NCBI GenBank assembly: GCA_964430565.1
Contig: CAYSFD010000051.1
Span: forward strand, 29,989-93,988
Length of the DNA stretch: 64,000 bases
From: an uncultured Enterobacteriaceae bacterium
Lineage (GTDB): Bacteria; Pseudomonadota; Gammaproteobacteria; Burkholderiales; SG8-39
Reading direction: 5' to 3'
Shown here: one piece after another, positions 7,927 to 43,343 of the stretch
How positions within the stretch are numbered: the first letter of the stretch is position 1
Layout: every line of letters starts with the position of its first letter
Program-made: the position numbers and the translations under genes
Notes under the pieces: model-generated
Told to the model about the DNA's origin: nothing
Databases searched by the model: none
The model's input: only the letters and a program-made list of their open reading frames with translations

Positions 7927-8850
7927 ATGCATTCCATCATCACCGTCACAAACCTGTCGAAAACCTACGCCTCGGGGCTGCAGGCTCTCAAGAAGATCAA
8001 CCTTGAGATTCGCCGCGGAGAGATCTTCGCGTTGCTCGGCCCCAACGGCGCTGGGAAGACGACGCTCATCGGCATCGTCTGTGGAATCGTCAATGCGAGC
8101 GCAGGGACGATTGTCGTGGACGGACACGACATCGTCGGCGATTACCGCGCCGCACGCTCCATGATCGGCCTCGTGCCGCAGGAGCTGACGACAGACGCGT
8201 TCGAAACAGTATGGAACACCGTGTCGTTCAGCCGCGGACTCTTCGGCAAGCCGGCCGACCCCGCGCACATCGAGAAGGTGCTGAAGGACTTGTCTTTGTG
8301 GGACCGCAAGGACAGCAAGGTCATGACCCTCTCGGGCGGAATGAAGCGGCGGCTGCTCATCGCCAAGGCGCTGTCGCACGAACCGCGGGTCCTGTTTCTT
8401 GACGAGCCGACCGCAGGCGTCGACGTGGAACTCCGGCAGGAGATGTGGAAGCTGGTGCGCGCGCTGCAGTCCTCAGGCGTGACCATCATTCTCACCACAC
8501 ACTACATCGACGAGGCCGAAGAGATGGCTGACCGGATCGGGGTGATCAACAACGGCGAGATCATCCTGGTTGAAGACAAGGCGGAAATCATGCGCAAGCT
8601 CGGGAGGAAACAATTGACTCTGCAGCTGCACGAGCCGCTTGCGCTTGTTCCGCAGGGGCTCTCCGCCTACAAGCTCGCGCTCTCGAGCAGCGGCGGCGAA
8701 TTAATCTACACCTACGATGAACGCGACCGCACCGGCATCACGGCGCTGCTTGCAGACCTGCCCGGGGCGGGAATCCGCTTCAAGGACCTTCACACGACAC
8801 AAAGCTCGCTCGAAGACATCTTCGTCACTCTGGTGAGAGAGAAGAAATGA
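7927..8850 (+). CDS. ABC transporter ATP-binding protein (YadG-like)
   Basis: Walker [10 protein letters not shown], signature LSGGMKRR, Walker B LFLDEPT; ATG at 7927. Confidence 0.92.
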
Positions 8851-9617
8851 GCGCCATGAACGTGCATGCGATCCGCGCGATCTACAAGTTCGAAATGGCG
8901 CGCACGCGGCGCACTCTGATGCAGAGCATCATCGCCCCGGTGATTTCGACGGCCTTGTACTTCGTCGTCTTCGGCGCGGCGATCGGCGCTCGCATACCCG
9001 AGGTCGAGGGCGTCAGCTACGGTGCCTTCATCGTGCCGGGGCTCATCATGCTGTCGCTGCTGACGCAGAGCCTCTCCAATGCGTCCTTCGGCATCTACTT
9101 TCCCAAGTTCACCGGGACGATCTACGAGCTCCTGTCGGCGCCGGTTTCCTATTTAGAGATCGTGGTGAGCTATGTGGGGGCGGCCGCAACCAAGTCGGTC
9201 GTGCTCGGCCTCATCATCCTCGCGACGGCGGCGCTGCTGGTGCCGGTGCGGATCGAGCATCCCTTCTGGATGATCCTCTTCCTCGTACTGACCTCGGTGA
9301 CCTTCAGCCTCATCGGCTTTATCATCGGAATCTGGGCGGACGGTTTCGAGAAGCTCCAGGCCATACCGCTCCTGATCATCACGCCTTTGACGTTTCTTGG
9401 CGGCAGCTTCTACTCCATCGACATGCTGCCGCCCTTCTGGCAGACGGTCTCGTTGTTTAACCCCGTGGTGTTCCTGGTGAGCGGGTTCCGCTGGAGCTTC
9501 TACGGGATCGCCGACGTGGGTGTCGGCGTGAGCCTCGCCGTGACCGGCCTGTTCCTGGCTATCGCGCTCGCGGTCGTAGCGTGGATCTTCAGGACCGGGT
9601 ATCGGCTGAAGAACTGA
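8847..9617 (+). CDS. ABC-2 type permease (YadH-like)
   Basis: Six hydrophobic segments; [11 protein letters not shown] and [17 protein letters not shown] motifs; ATGA overlap with the ATPase gene. Confidence 0.92.
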
Positions 9618-14739: not shown

Positions 14740-14811
14740 CTCTCTCCTCTTTTTGGGAGCATCCCGCCAGTTTTCATGCTACAAGAGAAACCCGATCGGG
14801 ACTGCCGCGAA

Positions 14812-15555
14812 ATGAAGATCGCTACCTGGAACGTCAACGGCGTCCGCGCGCGCCAGGCGCAGCTTCGCGAGTGGATGGAGCGCGACCGCCCGGACGTCGT
14901 GTGCCTGCAGGAGCTGAAGGCGGAGCCTTCCCAGATCCCCGAGCAGGTCAAGCTCGAGGACTACCACACGTTCTGGCATGGCCTGCGCGGCTACTCCGGC
15001 GTGTCGCTTCACATCAGAAAGGGCGCCTTCGACGCCGAGCCCGCGTTCGGCCACCCCGAGTTCGACATGGAATCGCGCATCGTGCAGGCCGATCTTGGCA
15101 AGCTCGTCCTCGCCTCGGTGTACGTGCCCAATGGCGGCAAGGACTACGAGGCGAAGCTCGGCTTCATGATCAAGCTCGCGGCCTGGGCGAAGCAGCTGCA
15201 CCGGGAAGGCCGCGATCTGGTTCTGTGCGGCGACATGAACATCACGCGCACCAACTTGGACGTGCATCCGAAGGAGCGCAAGCCTGGCATCATCGGCCAG
15301 CGGGAGGAAGAGCGCGAGCTGTTCGACAAGTTGCTGGGCGAACATCTCGTGGACGTCGGCCGCGCGCTCGATCCCGACAACCCGAACCTCTTCACCTGGT
15401 GGGCGCCCTGGCGCAACCTGCGCCAACGCAATATCGGCTGGCGCCTCGACTACATCCTCGCCTCGCCGGCGTTCGCTGAGCGCGCCGCAAGCTGCGCCGT
15501 GCTTGCCGATTTTGGAACGAGCGACCATGCGCCGGTGGTGATGATCACCGCGTAG
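14812..15555 (+). CDS. xth: Exodeoxyribonuclease III / AP endonuclease
   Basis: MKIATWNVNG, DVVCLQELK, SVYVPNG, GDMN, GWRLDYIL, SDHAPV. Confidence 0.95.
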   Translation: MKIATWNVNGVRARQAQLREWMERDRPDVVCLQELKAEPSQIPEQVKLEDYHTFWHGLRGYSGVSLHIRKGAFDAEPAFGHPEFDMESRIVQADLGKLVLASVYVPNGGKDYEAKLGFMIKLAAWAKQLHREGRDLVLCGDMNITRTNLDVHPKERKPGIIGQREEERELFDKLLGEHLVDVGRALDPDNPNLFTWWAPWRNLRQRNIGWRLDYILASPAFAERAASCAVLADFGTSDHAPVVMITA

Positions 15556-15632
15556 GCGCATTTGCTTCGGGCCGCACTCCGGGTAGGATGATCGGGTGCG
15601 ATGGAGCAATGACAAAGGAGGGAAGCGACGTG

Positions 15633-16601
15633 ATGCGATTACTCAAGATGTGGAGCGCTGCAATGTTCGCGGCGCTATGTTTGGCGAGCGCGGCAGTCGC
15701 GCAGCAATATCCGACCAAGCCGATCAAGCTCGTCGTGCTGATTGCGCCGGGCGGCGCGCCGGATGTAGCAGCGCGGGTCATGCAAGGCCCTCTTTCCGAG
15801 CGGCTGGGCCAGCCGATCGTGGTGGAGAACCGGGCGGGCTCCAACGGCAACATCGCCGGCGAGTACGTGGCGCGATCGGCGCCCGACGGCTACACGCTGC
15901 TGTTCGGCGCGGACAGCCTGATCGCGATCAACCCGCACATCTACGCGAAGATGAGCTTCGATCCGCTGAAGGATCTCGCGCCTGTGGCGACGACGGTGAT
16001 CACGCAGCTCATCCTGTCGGTCAATCCCGCCGTTCCGGTGAAAGACTTCAGGGAATTCCTCGAGTATGCGCGCAGCGCCAAACCGCCCCTAAACTACGCG
16101 TCGGGCGGCAACGGCAGCCAGCACCATCTCTCGATGGAAATGCTCAAGCAGCGAGCCGGCATCGACATGGTGCACGTCCCGTACAAGAGCGGGTCGCCGG
16201 CCGTCGCCGCGGCGGTTGCCGGCGAGGTGCCGATCGTGATGGCCGGCACGTCCTCCGGGCCATTGGTCAGAGCGGGCAGGCTGCGCGCGGTGGCGGTCAC
16301 CGGCCGGAATCGTCTGCCGCTGTTGCCCGACGTTCCGACGATCGGTGAATTCTTTCCGGGCTATGAAGTCAACAATTGGCTCGGCATCTGGGCGCCGGCT
16401 GGCACGCCGCAGCCGATCATCGCCCGCCTGCGCACGGCGATCAACGAGGTCCTCGCGCTAACCGAGGTGAGAAAGGGCATGGGCAGCGTCGGCGGGGCCG
16501 AGCTGTGGATCACGACGCCGGAGGAATTTGCCGCCACGATTCGCCGCGACTACGAGAAGTACGGCAAGCTCGTGAAGGAGATCGGCGCGAAGATCGATTG
16601 A
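15633..16601 (+). CDS. Bug/TctC tripartite tricarboxylate transporter substrate-binding protein
   Basis: Signal peptide; YPTKPIKLVV, PGGAPD, VVENRAGSNG, HVPYKSG. Confidence 0.93.
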   Translation: MRLLKMWSAAMFAALCLASAAVAQQYPTKPIKLVVLIAPGGAPDVAARVMQGPLSERLGQPIVVENRAGSNGNIAGEYVARSAPDGYTLLFGADSLIAINPHIYAKMSFDPLKDLAPVATTVITQLILSVNPAVPVKDFREFLEYARSAKPPLNYASGGNGSQHHLSMEMLKQRAGIDMVHVPYKSGSPAVAAAVAGEVPIVMAGTSSGPLVRAGRLRAVAVTGRNRLPLLPDVPTIGEFFPGYEVNNWLGIWAPAGTPQPIIARLRTAINEVLALTEVRKGMGSVGGAELWITTPEEFAATIRRDYEKYGKLVKEIGAKID

Positions 16602-16605
16602 GACG
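16542..16605 (+). repeat. 64-bp direct repeat, copy 1 (3' end and stop of bug gene)
   Basis: CGCCGCGACTACGAGAAG...AAGATCGATTGAGACG is identical to 18025-18088. Confidence 0.95.
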
Positions 16606-16756
16606 AAGGGACTGACTGACGCTCGCGCGTTTGTTCCGCCCGCTCGCGGGGGGCTGCCGGAGTTCATTCAACGGCTATTTGATCTGCCTCAATACGCGGG
16701 GTGCGCCCGGGGTGTAAAAAAAAGCGTGTGCTTCATTGGGTGAGAGTGGGTGAATC

Positions 16757-17971
16757 ATGTCGTCTCCCAACCCTTTGGTAGGCGCCAGAAAGCGTGTCGC
16801 GATACAGACGGCTTTCACGATTCTTGTACTCGGTATCGCCGCTTGTGGCGGCGGCGGGGGCGATGAGACAACAGCCAACCCACCGCCGGGCAGGGCGATC
16901 CCCGGCTCGGGCAACGAATCAGGATTCGCGGCCGGCGGCACCTCCGACGGCGGCTACATCATCGTCGGGACCGTCAGCCCGGGAGTATCGGGCGGCACGG
17001 ACGCCTACCTCGTGAAGGTTGATGCGACGGGCAACGTCGCATGGTCGCAATCACACGGCGGCAGCGGCGACGACAAAGGCTACTTCGTCCAGCCGACTCT
17101 CGACGGCGGCTACATCGTGGTGGGCGAAACAACATCGGCGATCGGGGGCGGCCCCGGAATCCACCTGGTCAAGACTCTTTCCAACGGCATTCTCGATTGG
17201 GAGAAGACCTACCCCGGCATTGTGGGCATCAAGCACTCGGAAGGGGCCGTCGTGCGCCAGACTGCAGGCGGTGGCTACATCATTGCCGGCACCGTGCCTG
17301 GCGCCGAGGGCAACCCGGAACCCGACGCAATCCTGATCAAGACCGATGCCAGCGGCAACGTCCAATGGCAGCAGACCTTTGGCGATGAGCTGCCCAACCT
17401 GTGGGCCGAGGGCTACGACGTGCGGCAGACACCCGACGGTGGCTATATGCTCGTCGGCTTTCACGAGTTCACTTCCAGCTTCGCGGTCAAGCTGGATTCG
17501 AACGGTGTCGCGCAATGGGAGCAAGCATTCGGCCAACTGACGGGGCCGATCTATTCGGTGCAGCAGACGACAGACGGCGGCTACATCTATGTCGGCCGAA
17601 CCGAGACGGGAGGAGGGCGCTGCGCGGCGCTCCTCGTGAAGGCGGACTTTCAGGGAACGCTGCAGTGGGAGAAAACCGTCGGCGCGCTGACCTCATGCCC
17701 GTCGCGTGTCACCGGTATGCAGACCGCCGACGGCGGCTACGTGATCGCGACCAAGGGCAACAGTCGCAGCGGCGATGCCTACGTGGTCAAGACCGACGCT
17801 TCGGGCAACGAGCAGTGGGCGAGGCTGTACGGTGGCGACGGCGGGGACGCCGTGAGCGCCATCGTCCAGCGCGCGGACGGCGGCTACACCGTGGTCGGCA
17901 CCACGAGCTCGTTCGGGAGCACGTCCGACATCTATTTCCTTCAGCTCGACGCGAGCGGGAATCCGCAATAG
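16757..17971 (+). CDS. Lipoprotein with ~7 DGGY..G / LVKxDxxGNxxW repeats (predicted beta-propeller)
   Basis: Lipobox IAAC followed by GGGGG; about seven ~50-aa repeats. Confidence 0.85.
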   Translation: MSSPNPLVGARKRVAIQTAFTILVLGIAACGGGGGDETTANPPPGRAIPGSGNESGFAAGGTSDGGYIIVGTVSPGVSGGTDAYLVKVDATGNVAWSQSHGGSGDDKGYFVQPTLDGGYIVVGETTSAIGGGPGIHLVKTLSNGILDWEKTYPGIVGIKHSEGAVVRQTAGGGYIIAGTVPGAEGNPEPDAILIKTDASGNVQWQQTFGDELPNLWAEGYDVRQTPDGGYMLVGFHEFTSSFAVKLDSNGVAQWEQAFGQLTGPIYSVQQTTDGGYIYVGRTETGGGRCAALLVKADFQGTLQWEKTVGALTSCPSRVTGMQTADGGYVIATKGNSRSGDAYVVKTDASGNEQWARLYGGDGGDAVSAIVQRADGGYTVVGTTSSFGSTSDIYFLQLDASGNPQ

Positions 17972-18024
17972 CGCTTTCCTGCCCCTCGCGTGCGGGCTAC
18001 GGGCTTCCCGACCAGTTGTCGGCG

Positions 18025-18088
18025 CGCCGCGACTACGAGAAGTACGGCAAGCTCGTGAAGGAGATCGGCGCGAAGATCGATTGAGACG
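18025..18088 (+). repeat. 64-bp direct repeat, copy 2 (orphan bug 3' end)
   Basis: Identical to 16542-16605; encodes RRDYEKYGKLVKEIGAKID* with no upstream bug sequence. Confidence 0.95.
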
Positions 18089-18112
18089 GGAGCGGGCCAG
18101 CGCCGATGCCGC

Positions 18113-19111
18113 TCACCGGAACGCCGCGAAGCCGAATCCCGTCCCGGTGCCGGCGGGGGAGCGATAGCCGGGGATGTATTCCGCCCACGCCGCGGGCAGA
18201 TGCTCCGAAGCGCCGGCCATGGCGATCCAGTTGCGGATCTCCGAGTTGCCGGAATTGAGCTTGCGCGGCGGCAGGCGCATGAGGGCCTCGCCGTCCTTCG
18301 CCTCGAGCGCGCGCACGATCTCGCGGTCGAAAGCCTCGTCGATGGCGAAGTGGGTCAGCCCGCCCGATCCGAGCACGCCCACGCGCGCCGGCCTGCCGTA
18401 GGATTCGATCGCGGCGCGAACCGCCTGGCCCAGGCGGAAGCAGCGCGCCGGCGTGGGTTGATTGGGCGGGTAGTAGGTGTTGAGGAACAATGGCACCATG
18501 GGCACGACCGGTGCCGTCCGCCCGAAGCCGAACAGGCGCTGGTGGACGAAAGCGAAAGCATGGCCTTCGCCTTCGCCGCGCGGGAAACGGTCGCACACCG
18601 CCACGTCGAAATCGCGCCGCATCAGCTCGGCGATCAGGTGCTCGGTCATCTCGTGTTCCACCGGATACTCCAAGCTTCCGCTCGGAAGGTAGTAGCGTCC
18701 CTGGATCGCGGCGAACCAGTCTACCCACTCGGGTTTCGGCGGCCGCATCGCGTGCGGCAGGGTCTTGCCACGATAGACGAGCAGAGCCGGGATATTGTCT
18801 TCGAGGAAGAGTTCCTTCTGATCGTCGCCGAAGACCACGAGCGCGTCGAGCCTGGCGTCGCGGATCTCGGCCGACAGCCGGTCGAGCGCGGCCTGCGCGG
18901 CGGCGTGGCGCGCGGCGAATTTTTCCGGCGTAGTTTCGCCCACGTAGCGATCCCCCGCTTCGCGAAGCAGCGCCGCGTAGGTGCAGGGATTGCCCTCGCG
19001 GTCGACGAATTTCATGGTCGGCTCGCGCGGCTCGAAGCGGCTCCATTCCGCCGCGGTCGCGTTCAGCATCGGCGAGTGCGAGGTACCGATGGCAAGGACG
19101 ATTTCAGCCAT
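18113..19111 (-). CDS. Class III extradiol ring-cleavage dioxygenase, LigB-like subunit
   Basis: MAEIVLAIGTSHSPML, VVFGDDQKELF, EGHAF, GSGGLTHF, NSGNSEIRNW. Confidence 0.88.
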   Translation of the reverse strand: MAEIVLAIGTSHSPMLNATAAEWSRFEPREPTMKFVDREGNPCTYAALLREAGDRYVGETTPEKFAARHAAAQAALDRLSAEIRDARLDALVVFGDDQKELFLEDNIPALLVYRGKTLPHAMRPPKPEWVDWFAAIQGRYYLPSGSLEYPVEHEMTEHLIAELMRRDFDVAVCDRFPRGEGEGHAFAFVHQRLFGFGRTAPVVPMVPLFLNTYYPPNQPTPARCFRLGQAVRAAIESYGRPARVGVLGSGGLTHFAIDEAFDREIVRALEAKDGEALMRLPPRKLNSGNSEIRNWIAMAGASEHLPAAWAEYIPGYRSPAGTGTGFGFAAFR

Positions 19112-19123
19112 GTCGTCGCGCTA

Positions 19124-19436
19124 TCACTCCACTTTCACGCCGGCGCTGCGCACCACGTGTCCCCAGTCGTCGGCTTCCTTGCGGATCAGCGCGGCGAATT
19201 CGCGCGGCGGCAGGCTGTCGGGCTCGGCGCCCATGCTGGCGATGCGCTCGCGGTAGTTGGGGTCGTAGCCGCGGCTGCAGCTTCTCCGCGGCGAGCCGCG
19301 CGAAGACATCCGGCGCGAACCCGGCCCCGTAAGGCACGATGATCCTGATCGGCTTAGCCGGATACGCCTGGCCCAGGGCGAGCGGCGCTGCCGCGAAGGC
19401 AAGCAACAGGAAAGCGAGCGTGCGCAGTGTCCGCAT
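19124..19436 (-). pseudogene. Bug/TctC gene with large internal deletion and frameshift
   Basis: N-terminus (signal peptide, YPAKPIRIIVPYGAG) joined out of frame near 19265-19270 to a C-terminus (DPNYRERIASMGAEP...WGHVVRSAGVKVE); ~310 bp versus ~970 bp for intact paralogs. Confidence 0.85.
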
Positions 19437-19563: not shown

Positions 19564-20364
19564 ATGACCCTTCCAACGAAACTCCTCCGCAACGCGACGA
19601 TGCTTGCTTGCAGCGCGGCGCTCGCCGGTTGCGCCACCGTCCCGGCCGATGAGCTGCTCGCCTCGACCGCGATCGTTGCCGAGCTCGAGCGCGAGAGCGG
19701 CGCGGTCGTCGAAGCGGCGCGATTCTCCGAGGGCCGCGCCGGCGAGGTGCAGTCCGGCTGGGGCCGCTTCGTCGTTTCGCCCTTCGCGACGAAGAGCGCC
19801 TACGCCCTGGTCGAGAGCAACCCGGGCGTGGTGCTCGAGGGGCGCGCGGACGGCTCGGCCTCGGGGTTCTACCGGCGCATCCGCATCGATCCGGCGCGCC
19901 ATCCCGTGATCGAGTGGCGCTGGCGCGTGCTGCAGTCGCCGGCGGAGGTCGACCCGCGGGTTCCCGCGCGCGACGACTCTCCGGCGCGCGTGATCATCGC
20001 CTTCCATGGCGACCTGAAGCGCCTGGACTTCGGCGAGAAGTTCGCGTTGCGGCTCTACAACGCGCTCACCGGCGAGAAGATGCCGTACGCGATCATCATG
20101 TACAGCTGGTCGAGCAACGCGCCGGTCGGCACCATCATCGCCAACGACCAGACCGAGAAGATCCAGACCATCGTCGTCGAAAACGGCGGCGGCCGCATCG
20201 GCGAGTGGCGCGAGTTGCGGCGCAACGTGCTCGAGGACTACCGGCTCGCGTTCGGCGAGGAACCCTGGGACATCGTCGGGGTGGGGGTGATGACCGACGC
20301 GAGCAACACGCGCGAGAAGGCGCGCGCGCAGTACGGGGACATCAGCTTTCGGTTGGAGCAGTGA
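19564..20364 (+). CDS. DUF3047-family lipoprotein
   Basis: Lipobox LAGC; PVIEWRWRV, RDDSPARV, YSWSSNAPVG, GVMTDASNT. Confidence 0.85.
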   Translation: MTLPTKLLRNATMLACSAALAGCATVPADELLASTAIVAELERESGAVVEAARFSEGRAGEVQSGWGRFVVSPFATKSAYALVESNPGVVLEGRADGSASGFYRRIRIDPARHPVIEWRWRVLQSPAEVDPRVPARDDSPARVIIAFHGDLKRLDFGEKFALRLYNALTGEKMPYAIIMYSWSSNAPVGTIIANDQTEKIQTIVVENGGGRIGEWRELRRNVLEDYRLAFGEEPWDIVGVGVMTDASNTREKARAQYGDISFRLEQ

Positions 20365-22880: not shown

Positions 22881-24719
22881 ATGAGCAAGAAGGACAAGGA
22901 CGGCAAGGACATCAAGGACATCAAGGACATGAGCCGCCGCAACCTGCTGAAGGCCGGCGCTGCAGCCGGCGTCTCGGTGGCGCTGGGCGGTCCCGCAGCA
23001 ACGCACGCCAACGAGCGCCACGGCGGCGGGTCCCACGGGAGGAAGTCCAGGGACCGCGAGCTCACGCTGGTCAACGGCAGGATCCACACGATGGACGATC
23101 GCAATTCCGTCGTCTCGTCGGTGACGATCCGCAACGGGCGCTTCGAATCCGTCGGCGGATGGGGCTGGAATTCGGGCGGCAGGGGCGAGGTCATCGACCT
23201 GCGCGGCCGCACCGTCGTCCCCGGTCTCCTCGAGAGCCACACGCACTTCGTCAGCCTCGCCAACCGTCCCGGCTACCACGTCGCGCAGTGGGAGCTCGCG
23301 AACAACGTCGCCGAGGTCCTGGCGCTGCTTGCCGCGCGCCGCGCGCGCGGCGACGTGCCGGAGGGCCAGTTCATCACCGCGATGGGCGCCGGCACCCCGC
23401 GGATGTTCGCCGAGCTGCGCCTGCCGTTCCTTGCCGAGCTCGACCAGGCGGTGCCCGACCGGCCGGTATTCCTGTACCAGGGCGGCGGCGGCCCCGCGCG
23501 CGTCAACTCGCTGGGAAAGGCCTTCTTCGAGAGCGTATCCAACCCCACGGTCAGCGTCGGCGCCGACGGCTCGATTCCCGGCGGCAATCCGAACCAGGCG
23601 AGCGCCGCCCTCTACCACCTCAGGATCCGCCAGACCTTCGAGGACAAGAAGAGGAGCGCGCTCGATTCGATGGCGTTCTCGGCGCAGGTCGGAATCACCG
23701 CCAACCTCGACCAGACGCTGGTCGCGGTGGCCACCGGGACGCTCAACCCGGCAACGCTCGACCCGCAGCCGAACCACGCGCTCTTCAACCTCAACCACTT
23801 CCGCATGTACGATGCGTGGCTGGCGCTGCACGCCGAGGGAAGAGCGTTCGTGCGCCTGCAGATGAACTTCCTGCACAACCAGGGGTTCATCGCCGAGCTC
23901 GGCGATCTCGCCCACCAGCTGCCCGAGCTGCGGGAGCGGCTCAAGAACCAGTTCCAGTTCTTCGGCGACGACATGCTGCGCACCGGCGCCATCGGCGAAT
24001 GGGCGGCGCCTTTTGTGGCCTCCACCTCAACGAACGTGGACGGCTACCGGGTGTGGCTGGAAGCGCAGCGTCTCTGCGCCCAGGCGCGCTGGCGAAACGA
24101 GAACAGCCAGGCCGGCAGCCCGACGAGCACCGACAACATCGAGCAGGTCATTGCGACCTACGAGGCGATGGACGCCGAGTTCGGCATCAAGGACCTGCGC
24201 TGGGCCCTGCAGCATGCTGATCACGCGACGCCCGCGCAGCTCCAGCGGCTGAAGGCGCTCAACTGCGGCGTCTCGATGTCCGGCTTCCGCTGGCTGAACG
24301 GGGTCCCGCGCACCGATGGACTGCCCGTTGGCCCGCTCTTCCCGCAGATCGTCGCGAGCGGCATCCCGGCCGGCCTGCACGAGGACGGTGTGCACATCGC
24401 GCCGCACAACCCGTGGTTCGCGCTGCACTACGCGACCACGGGCCTCAACGTGCTCGGTCAGCAGATCAATCCCGGCCAGCAGATCACCCGAGCGCAGGCA
24501 CTGCACGCCTACACGCGCGGCAACGCCTGGTACCTGAACCGGGAGGACGACCTCGGCTCGATCGAGAAGGGCAAGCTGGGCGATCTGGTCGTGCTCGACC
24601 GCGACTACTTCTCGGTGAGCGACGCGGACATGCGCAGGGTCCGCCCGATCCTCACCGTCGTGGACGGCGAGGTCGTGCACGACTCCGGCGTGCTGCGGCG
24701 CGACCGGCGCCACGATTGA
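22881..24719 (+). CDS. Tat-exported amidohydrolase (YtcJ/Amidohydro_3-like)
   Basis: SRRNLLK twin-arginine signal; DLRGRTVVPGLLESHTH; AYTRGNAW; GSIEKGKLGDLVVLDRD. Confidence 0.88.
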   Translation: MSKKDKDGKDIKDIKDMSRRNLLKAGAAAGVSVALGGPAATHANERHGGGSHGRKSRDRELTLVNGRIHTMDDRNSVVSSVTIRNGRFESVGGWGWNSGGRGEVIDLRGRTVVPGLLESHTHFVSLANRPGYHVAQWELANNVAEVLALLAARRARGDVPEGQFITAMGAGTPRMFAELRLPFLAELDQAVPDRPVFLYQGGGGPARVNSLGKAFFESVSNPTVSVGADGSIPGGNPNQASAALYHLRIRQTFEDKKRSALDSMAFSAQVGITANLDQTLVAVATGTLNPATLDPQPNHALFNLNHFRMYDAWLALHAEGRAFVRLQMNFLHNQGFIAELGDLAHQLPELRERLKNQFQFFGDDMLRTGAIGEWAAPFVASTSTNVDGYRVWLEAQRLCAQARWRNENSQAGSPTSTDNIEQVIATYEAMDAEFGIKDLRWALQHADHATPAQLQRLKALNCGVSMSGFRWLNGVPRTDGLPVGPLFPQIVASGIPAGLHEDGVHIAPHNPWFALHYATTGLNVLGQQINPGQQITRAQALHAYTRGNAWYLNREDDLGSIEKGKLGDLVVLDRDYFSVSDADMRRVRPILTVVDGEVVHDSGVLRRDRRHD

Positions 24720-34173: not shown

Positions 34174-34243
34174 CGTCATCCCCGCGCAAGCGGGGATCCA
34201 GTGACTTTGCCGCCGCTGGATTCCCGCTTGCGCGGGAATGACG
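34174..34243. repeat. Palindromic repeat element, dRS3-like (ATTCCC-N8-GGGAAT)
   Basis: CGTCATCCCCGCGCAAGCGGGGATCCAG...CTGGATTCCCGCTTGCGCGGGAATGACG; exact ATTCCC-N8-GGGAAT at 34220-34239. Confidence 0.85.
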
Positions 34244-34257
34244 GCACACTACGTCCG

Positions 34258-34764
34258 ATGAGAATCCTCCTTCCCTTCCTCGCGCTCGTCATCGCAGGCT
34301 GCGCGGCTGTGGTGCCGATGCCCGGGCCGGCTCCGGAGCGCGCTCCCGAGTTGCCTGCTCCTGCGCCTCCCGCTCCCGCGCCTCCCGTTCCCGCGCCTCC
34401 CGCTCCCGAGGTACCCGTTCCCGCGCCCGCCGCCCGCACCGAAAGCATCGCCATCGCCGGTCTCATGGACGGCGCGCGAACCGATGCCGCGGCCGGGCGC
34501 CTGGCGAACGCCGCGGCGCAGCTCGAGCGCGCGCTGCGCATCGAGCCGCGCAATCCGCGCCTGTGGCAGGAACTCGCGCGCGTGCGCTTGAAGCAGGGCG
34601 ACTACGCGCAAGTCGAAGGCACCGCCGCACGCTCCAACTCCTGGGCGCGGGACGATCCCGCGCTGCGCGCCGAGAACTGGCGCTTGATCGCGCAGGCGCG
34701 CGAGGCGCGCGGGGACGAGCAAGGCGCGCTGGTGGCGCGCGAAGCGGCGGCACGGCAGAGGTAG
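34258..34764 (+). CDS. Lipoprotein with Pro-rich linker and TPR domain, LpoP-like PBP1b activator candidate
   Basis: Lipobox IAGC; PAP repeats (15-bp tandem units at about 34366-34410); TPR LERALRIEPRNPRLWQELA; directly after mrcB. Confidence 0.75.
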   Translation: MRILLPFLALVIAGCAAVVPMPGPAPERAPELPAPAPPAPAPPVPAPPAPEVPVPAPAARTESIAIAGLMDGARTDAAAGRLANAAAQLERALRIEPRNPRLWQELARVRLKQGDYAQVEGTAARSNSWARDDPALRAENWRLIAQAREARGDEQGALVAREAAARQR

Positions 34765-43228: not shown

Positions 43229-43242
43229 GCGGGAAGGATCAG

Positions 43243-43343
43243 CCGTCATTCCCGCGAACGCGGGAATCCAGTGACGTTGCGCAAAAGTCTCTGGGTCCCC
43301 GCTCCCCGATTCCATTCGGGGACAGGTTTCGCGGGGACGACGG
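43243..43343. repeat. Palindromic repeat element, dRS3-like, with an extra internal hairpin
   Basis: ATTCCC-GCGAACGC-GGGAAT at 43248-43267; right arm CTGGGTCCCCGC...TTCGCGGGGACGACGG is interrupted by TCCCCGATTCCATTCGGGGA. Confidence 0.85.

Follow-up and report, generated by a model that had tools for sequence, protein, structure and literature searches.

An apparently recent, strain-specific insertion of a single lipoprotein gene behind a bug gene, bracketed by an exact 64-bp copy of the target's 3' end

In the 64-kb window analysed here (the whole stretch of DNA under study, taken from a 434-kb source contig), a single lipoprotein gene is located downstream of an intact bug/TctC gene encoding a periplasmic binding protein, and is bracketed by two identical copies of the 64 bp that encompass the 3' end of that gene (named R, with R1 being the left and R2 the right copy). 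The host is a sediment betaproteobacterium, and the insertion is known in one strain. We consider it about an even chance that this arrangement represents the scar of a recent strain-specific rearrangement, in which a gene was relocated illegitimately and its target was duplicated in place without the involvement of a mobile element. The components of the locus, in the coordinates of the window and with reference to the related loci L003 and L120 and to the runs X8, X9, X15 and X16, are as follows.

15633..16601, + strand: bug/TctC periplasmic binding protein gene, intact, the target (PF03401 TctC, E = 1.3e-66)
16542..16605, + strand: R1, left repeat copy, being the last 57 coding nt of bug, TGA and GACG
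16606..16636, no strand: left junction filler of about 30 bp, without a counterpart in any relative or elsewhere in the window
16637..16756, + strand: upstream (promoter) sequence native to the lipoprotein gene and carried along with it (alignment with L003, X8, X9 and X15)
16638..16654, + strand: left arm of a 15/17 inverted repeat, within the sequence conserved ahead of the lipoprotein gene
16757..17971, + strand: lipoprotein gene, the cargo, 404 aa, with lipobox LGIAAC and seven ~50-aa 'DGGY' repeats, beta-propeller-like
17975..18024, no strand: right junction filler of 50 bp, strain-specific, holding the right inverted repeat arm (17981-17997) and differing from the X8/X9, X16, L003 and L120 flanks
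18025..18088, + strand: R2, right repeat copy, non-coding, retaining the ancestral junction with the spacer and LigB

R1 (16542-16605) and R2 (18025-18088) are identical at 64/64 nt with a start-to-start spacing of 1483, and R is the sole exact repeat of at least 28 nt in the 64 kb; when up to three mismatches are allowed, the window still holds only these two copies, the number in 100 shuffles being 0. R1 consists of the final 19 bug codons (RRDYEKYGKLVKEIGAKID), the TGA stop at 16599-16601 and four further bases. R2 is located outside any gene and is preceded, on its 5' side, by 53 bp of non-bug sequence and then by the stop codon of the lipoprotein gene, while the interval between the two copies amounts to 1,419 bp with one credible gene. 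The earlier note, made from the sequence alone, had described an exact 64-bp duplication of a bug 3' end around approximately 1.4 kb carrying a single lipoprotein gene, with a 17-bp inverted repeat (15/17) near both ends, as an insertion which kept the bug gene intact and left direct repeats behind; each of these elements is present as described, and this description of the insertion holds.

A whole-gene tandem duplication of bug followed by decay, which the earlier note had named as a refuting case, was not seen, the relatives having a single bug gene at the site and nothing bug-like being located 5' of R2. At the latter position tblastn extends by merely six weakly similar codons, which is chance level, and an older bug remnant ('PDQLSA' versus 'PEEFAAT') was considered and rejected, as the corresponding match of 10/18 nt is also at chance level. 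The bug orthologues are 77-91% identical in aa, and the last 63 nt of the gene (16539-16601) exceed the remainder in DNA conservation in 11/11 orthologues (L006-L017), with, for example, 59/63 versus 82%. This higher conservation is explained by the conserved C-terminal peptide RRDYEKYGKLVKDIGAKID, and the possibility that R is an unusually conserved functional element was rejected on that account. When inspected by eye for a duplicated dif-like 28-bp site of the kind that borders Xer/dif-dependent elements, R is GC-rich coding sequence without an AT-rich centre.

The state of the locus prior to insertion is retrievable from relatives, in which the following three features of the window are involved.

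14806..15555, + strand: xth, exodeoxyribonuclease III, left neighbour of bug (TIGR00633, 224.7 bits, above cut-off; Pfam Exo_endo_phos)
18089..18112, no strand: ancestral bug-LigB spacer, 24 bp (L006 and the X8 contig)
18113..19111, - strand: LigB-family class III extradiol dioxygenase, oriented towards bug (convergent) and bounding the empty site on the right (PF02900, E = 1.4e-17)

A relative with approximately 95% identity, represented in runs X8 and X9, has the order xth-bug-R-LigB, which is the unoccupied site. Its 219-nt contig from X8 (~94% identical) aligns through bases 1-193 to 16412-16604 and through bases 131-218 to 18025-18112, and so passes from bug via R and the spacer to the LigB terminus with no insert. 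Contigs of 477 and 455 nt (X8/X9) extend gapless from xth through the spacer into bug, and X8 depth is nil over 16823-17848. A second unoccupied site is found in a betaproteobacterial metagenome-assembled genome (MAG; L006 and L090, which are the same contig), whose bug gene is 91% identical in aa and 89% in nt and whose locus comprises DUF3047, bug and LigB; here, one R copy (63/64) passes straight into a spacer and LigB homologous to window 18089-19121, without the insert. Thus the empty site which the earlier note had suggested looking for was found in L006/L090 as well as in X8/X9. Among the loci examined, adjacency of bug and LigB occurred only in L006/L090, and a lipoprotein gene beside bug in none. 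The relatives retrieved via LigB are Burkholderiales or betaproteobacterial MAGs.

Two other interpretations of these data were considered and discarded. The first, prompted by the xth-lipoprotein order in L003, regards bug as the inserted piece and R2 as the leftover of the original bug; it was rejected as the ~95% relative has both xth-bug and bug-R-LigB, with its bug sequence belonging to one identity class, and as L006 has bug-R-LigB. The second postulates two bug copies in the ~95% relative, one linked to xth and one to LigB, and was rejected as the mismatches of the xth-bug contig are dense in xth and sparse in bug, which fits one genome with one copy.

R differs from the window at two positions in the ~95% relative and at one in L006. 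Because R1 and R2 are identical at 64/64 while the R of the ~95% relative differs at two positions, the duplication is placed by sequence comparison after the split from that relative, and the insertion is taken to be strain-specific and recent, in agreement with the recent event proposed in the earlier note. It is very unlikely that R-lipoprotein-R is instead an old arrangement, with R1 x R2 recombination having deleted the insert precisely, once in L006 and once in the ~95% relative, and with gene conversion having maintained the identity of the copies in the window. Precise deletion is indeed promoted by direct repeats of 64 bp, and L003 has a lipoprotein gene near xth in a more distant lineage, yet two independent precise losses would be required, the non-coding R2 would have had to stay at 64/64 while bug diverged by 5-11%, and a decayed lipoprotein locus, differently flanked, is present elsewhere in the ~95% relative itself.

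The insert is very probably not a misassembly. The source run X1 (Logan record SRR9952630) is a freshwater sediment metagenome, and its Logan assembly breaks exactly at the repeat into the following pieces.

bug contig, ending at 16571: depth 55.5
repeat unitig of 64 nt, corresponding to R: depth 104.6
lipoprotein contig of 1,479 nt, 16576-18054: depth 51.8
LigB contig, starting at 18059: depth 52.2

The resulting depth ratio of bug, repeat, lipoprotein and LigB is 1:2:1:1, which speaks against the misassembly that the earlier note had listed as a refuting case; the lipoprotein gene, being at 1x depth, is single-copy in the source genome, and the depth in X1 allows at most a few percent of empty sites. 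The lipoprotein contig opens with the last 30 nt of R and closes with its first 30 nt. Logan contigs have k = 31 (inferred from 30-nt contig overlaps) and cannot link sequence across a 64-bp repeat, and all 31-mers of the excised forms are also found in the integrated form. The k = 31 graph therefore has two resolutions, namely the integrated order, or an empty site accompanied by a 1,483-bp circle. Contigs from other samples which cross one repeat copy (X3, 16133-16653; X4, 17846-18187; X5) were considered as proof of linkage and rejected for this purpose, as k = 31 shows junction words and not linkage over 64 bp.

An assembly artefact, in which an empty site and a separate circle were joined, is permitted by this graph, between whose resolutions the Logan contigs cannot discriminate, but it is extremely improbable. 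The depth of the insert (51.8) equals that of its flanks (52.2-55.5), the putative circle would lack a replication gene, and the 434-kb source contig has the insert in the integrated order; because of these three observations we take the insert to be an integrated single copy. Three further samples contain contigs of the same strain which agree with the window sequence, and which do not discriminate on their own.

The cargo belongs to a very large protein family (more than 7,000 homologues) and matches DUF5122 and SBBP-lipoprotein, both beta-propeller families, weakly and below cut-off. The GC content of the insert (63-67%) and its GC content at third codon positions (0.80) are the same as those of the neighbouring genes. 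In relatives, the gene is found at other loci. L003 (about 80% nt identity) contains xth, then a lipoprotein orthologue (74% aa) and then a pirin gene, with a homologous spacer upstream of the orthologue: the alignment of the lipoprotein upstream region with the xth-lipoprotein spacer of L003 (window 16659-16742) scores 19.5, the maximum of 500 shuffles being 16.5. At a locus elsewhere in X8/X9, the same upstream region (from about 16637) is followed by the last 40 nt of the gene, the 1,201 bp between them being deleted (joint 16733 to 17935). Copies that are 93-95% identical to that of the window occur in X15 and X16, where the upstream flank of X15 is common to X8/X9, and where X16 and X8/X9 have a common downstream flank beginning 'GGTAC', unlike that of the window. 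Homology to the lipoprotein locus of relatives thus begins at ~16637 (X8/X9), ~16643 (X15) or 16659 (L003), and the native flanks in relatives read '...CCCACCGCCGCTCGCGC' upstream and 'GGTACCCGCTCTCCCGCG...' downstream. For the flanks of the X8/X9 deletion locus no match was found in the window, and in the visible flanks of the relatives' lipoprotein loci no R-like sequence was found. A further homologue, L120 (82% nt; L120:7-993), has a premature stop in the lipoprotein gene, and the gene appears, from these sequences, to be decaying in relatives and to be dispensable.

The module is 89-92% identical to the copy of the ~95% relative, the flanking core genes being 86-96% identical. Judged from these comparisons, the cargo appears to be an ordinary resident chromosomal gene of the clade and not a mobile cassette that brings an att site along. 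We infer a relocation from within the same lineage rather than an import from a distant donor, because the insert has native composition, its orthologues occupy other chromosomal loci with the same upstream region, it is single-copy, and its divergence is core-like. In the alignment of L003:1-1916 with window 14806-17971, the orthologue is directly 3' of xth in L003, and 1.2 kb from xth, with bug between, in the window. In addition, 16625-16651, 5' of the lipoprotein gene, resembles the 28 nt past the xth stop (15556-15583; 21/28, one gap; shuffle P about 0.03), a likeness which xth and the lipoprotein gene may have retained from a former adjacency or which may be due to chance.

In the favoured scenario, the ancestor would have carried xth, bug, the 24-bp spacer and LigB on the opposite strand. 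Into this site a resident module would have been inserted, comprising the lipoprotein gene and about 120 bp of its own upstream sequence (~16637-17974), together with about 30 bp (left) and 50 bp (right) of unrelated sequence. Compared with the empty site, the window has two new joints: the left one is at 16605/16606, four nt past the bug stop, and the right one at 18024/18025, attaching to the target 64 nt further upstream. Because the two joints overlap by 64 nt on the target, that stretch would have been copied in place, either through repair of a staggered break with fill-in, or through a replication template switch which returned 64 nt behind its departure point. The duplication preserves the bug reading frame, and this is probably why the variant survived. 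Such a course of events agrees with the unrelated filler at both joints, with the lack of any gene for a dedicated enzyme and with the fact that either repeat copy has the sequence of the host allele, and the joints are inferred to be illegitimate rather than site-specific.

Several points weigh against this scenario. A donor site is not seen in the 64 kb analysed of the 434-kb contig, and no significant match to the 30-bp and 50-bp fillers was obtained in the window or in the retrieved loci. For break repair, 64 bp is a long target duplication. An inverted repeat (15/17) that is located close to either end of the insert is rarer than expected by chance (P~0.005) and is not explained by the model. 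It would also be a strange coincidence if a random insertion had put the gene only 1.2 kb from xth in the window, given that the L003 orthologue is located directly beside xth. Finally, the integrated order is supported by equal depth and by the source assembly, and not by spanning reads.

The 17-nt arms of the inverted repeat (16638-16654 and 17981-17997, 15/17 complementary) are positioned 33 and 27 bp inside the insert, and thus off its ends. Only 0.4-0.5% of random pairs of equally placed stretches reach 15/17, while the same level is attained in 0.04% of piece pairs outside a deliberately strict gene mask, these pieces still including real coding sequence. The repeat is not conserved, as the orthologous locus in L003 has no counterpart and as the right arm is located in the 50-bp stretch that matches no relative. 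The insert termini, AAGGGACT... and ...GTCGGCG, are unrelated, so that there are no terminal inverted repeats. Neither flank of the insert folds better than shuffled sequence (17965-18030, z = +1.27), and no terminator, promoter or stable RNA structure was found in these flanks.

The earlier note had proposed integration by a recombinase acting in trans, with homologous capture as the other possibility; for the att-site and recombinase reading, positive evidence was not obtained. Such an event would make R1 and R2 the attL and attR sites of a minimal, integrase-free, cis-mobilizable element, with a tyrosine or serine recombinase, provided in trans, having inserted a 1,483-bp circle composed of R and the lipoprotein module. 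The layout matches it in the direct repeats which include the target 3' end, in the restored gene and in the empty site of relatives; in the circle, R would have the arms of the rarer-than-chance inverted repeat on either side, at distances of 27 and 32 bp, in the manner of arm sites, and elements which retain attL and attR after the loss of their integration genes have been described as cis-mobilizable elements (CIMEs; PMC5704250). We nevertheless regard this origin as unlikely. Pfam searches of about 50 open reading frames (ORFs) spread over the 64-kb window, on which the statements on mobile-element genes in the window are based, detected no integrase, transposase, phage or plasmid function and no recombinase, and the insert contains one gene of native composition and no remnant of an integrative and conjugative element (ICE), an integrative and mobilizable element (IME) or a prophage. 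No plasmid match was found, and a plasmid origin was rejected. Relatives hold the same gene and upstream region, including the left inverted repeat arm, at ordinary loci elsewhere, with visible flanks devoid of R-like sequence. The two copies are moreover identical to each other although the closest relative differs at 2/64, which is better accommodated by copying in place than by an imported attP.

A broader form of the same idea, to which we assign a very low probability, makes R a true site of recombination for an unlinked recombinase: single-gene modules, with their promoter, would be moved into the conserved bug/TctC 3' ends and the gene restored each time, the bug family would provide distributed landing pads, the function of arm sites would fall to the 17-nt inverted repeats near the ends, and the lipoprotein contexts in relatives would be other landings. 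The bug family often has dozens or more paralogues per genome in Burkholderiales. The notion of bug 3' ends as general landing pads had also been put forward in the earlier note, and no second case was encountered to sustain it: duplicated 3' ends were absent from the other bug genes of the window (three genes and one remnant) and from about 90 bug loci of metagenomes and genomes, the comparison covering 120 loci with a total of 892 kb, among them 80 metagenomic loci with bug relatives and 30 genomic ones with LigB relatives. This result also counts against a recombinase acting in trans on this one site.

Homologous capture of the Campbell type is a further explanation of the exact repeats, and one we also hold to be unlikely. 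A circle already carrying the 64-bp bug 3' end and the lipoprotein module would have entered by a single RecA-dependent crossover within R, which yields exact direct repeats and an intact target, as observed; 64 bp exceeds the minimal RecA-dependent homology. This requires a prior adjacency of R and the lipoprotein gene, which was found neither in the roughly 12 closest bug orthologue loci nor in several lipoprotein loci, and it would leave the R-lipoprotein junction itself to be explained at an earlier step.

The genes around the insertion are, in order, NnrS (-), xth (+), bug (+), the lipoprotein gene (+), R2, LigB (-), an internally deleted bug (-) and DUF3047 (+). The NCBIfam matches of LigB are all under the curated cut-offs. 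The deleted gene is the following.

19124..19436, - strand: bug/TctC gene with a large internal deletion, in which 54 N-terminal codons are followed, 4 nt later and out of frame, by 48 C-terminal codons

About 220 codons have been lost from this remnant (19124-19436), which is directly 5' of LigB on the same strand, so that LigB is located between bug debris on both sides; the sequence is also present in the independent Logan contig L002. Compared with the 89% identical relative, blocks have been transposed without inversion (19564-20364 and 23244-24248 of the window versus L006:9117-9914 and 7998-9002); DUF3047 is 5' of bug in L006 and past LigB in the window, and another 1-kb block has also switched sides. 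On this comparison of gene orders, we regard the neighbourhood as rearrangement-prone.

The proximity to xth, shared with L003, would be explained if the native site of the lipoprotein gene had been close by. A local tandem duplication, extending from the start of R to just past a nearby native lipoprotein gene, would then have made the 18024/18025 joint, a deletion would have removed the sequence between R1 and the module, and the original copy would have been lost thereafter. Tandem duplications with later trimming are frequent bacterial rearrangements, the region is in flux (the transposed blocks relative to L006 and the deleted bug beside LigB), and native lipoprotein copies are easily lost in relatives. 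We judge this course to be quite improbable, as it needs three events with no intermediate seen, as the 64 kb contain neither a second lipoprotein copy nor its flanks, and as the native flanks of the ~95% relative match nothing in the window.

By Pfam, the ORFs elsewhere in the window include glyA, nrdR, ribD, PBP1A, hrpA, purN, an RND efflux pump and three more TctC genes, and represent housekeeping and transport functions. GC-rich palindromic units resembling repetitive extragenic palindromes occur at 34174-34245 and 43242-43276 (CGTCATTCCCGCG...CGCGGGAATGACG); one unit is a 28-nt hairpin with arms that are 93% complementary, a related copy being located 9 kb off in inverted orientation. Tandem 15-nt repeats (CGCTCCCGCGCCTCC-like, about six units, 34341-34430) are located just 3' of the PBP1A gene.

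If the relocation of a resident module is the correct reading, the locus provides a clean, datable natural case of a single functional gene which changed its chromosomal place without mobile-element machinery, and of which the states before and after are recoverable from metagenomes. It would also indicate that an att-like signature can arise from ordinary rearrangement, which calls for caution in island-finding pipelines that call elements by flanking repeats alone. If, on the other hand, a recombinase acting in trans does target bug ends, this would constitute a new cassette system in bug-rich bacteria, in support of which no second instance was found among the loci examined.

With integrative elements and islands at gene 3' ends, the insertion shares att-type direct repeats including the target 3' end, a gene that stays intact and an unoccupied site in relatives. 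It differs in that no integrase is located in or near the insert, in that it consists of one gene of native composition with orthologues at ordinary loci, and in that one copy and one site are known. CIMEs, which are flanked by attL and attR and have lost their integration genes (PMC5704250), resemble it as repeat-flanked segments without a recombination gene; they are, however, decayed ICEs or IMEs that are usually found beside, or share sites with, a functional element, whereas the 64 kb studied here contain no such remnant and no partner. As for integron cassettes, the region 17965-18030 has no structured attC-like fold (z = +1.27), and there is no integrase among the ORFs of the window.

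Transposons duplicate a short target stretch of constant length (about 2-14 bp), end in inverted repeats and occur in several copies. Insertion sequences, transposons and miniature inverted-repeat transposable elements have in common with the present case an insertion bracketed by a target duplication, which implies staggered joints; here, by contrast, 64 bp are duplicated, inverted repeats do not form the ends, the insert exists in a single copy and the window contains no transposase. Campbell-type insertion-duplication likewise places exact direct repeats of a shared segment around an insert, but it needs a circle which already carries the 64-bp segment, and no such donor arrangement was found in the loci compared. 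A further likeness is to illegitimate recombination or template switching, as in microhomology-mediated break-induced replication or in double illegitimate recombination during transformation, with which the insertion shares two non-homologous joints, unrelated filler, a duplicated target and the lack of a dedicated enzyme gene. To our knowledge, naturally fixed illegitimate insertions with a whole functional gene and a neatly preserved target have seldom been documented. On the best reading of these comparisons, the feature is to be filed as a strain-specific structural variant which arose from ordinary rearrangement.

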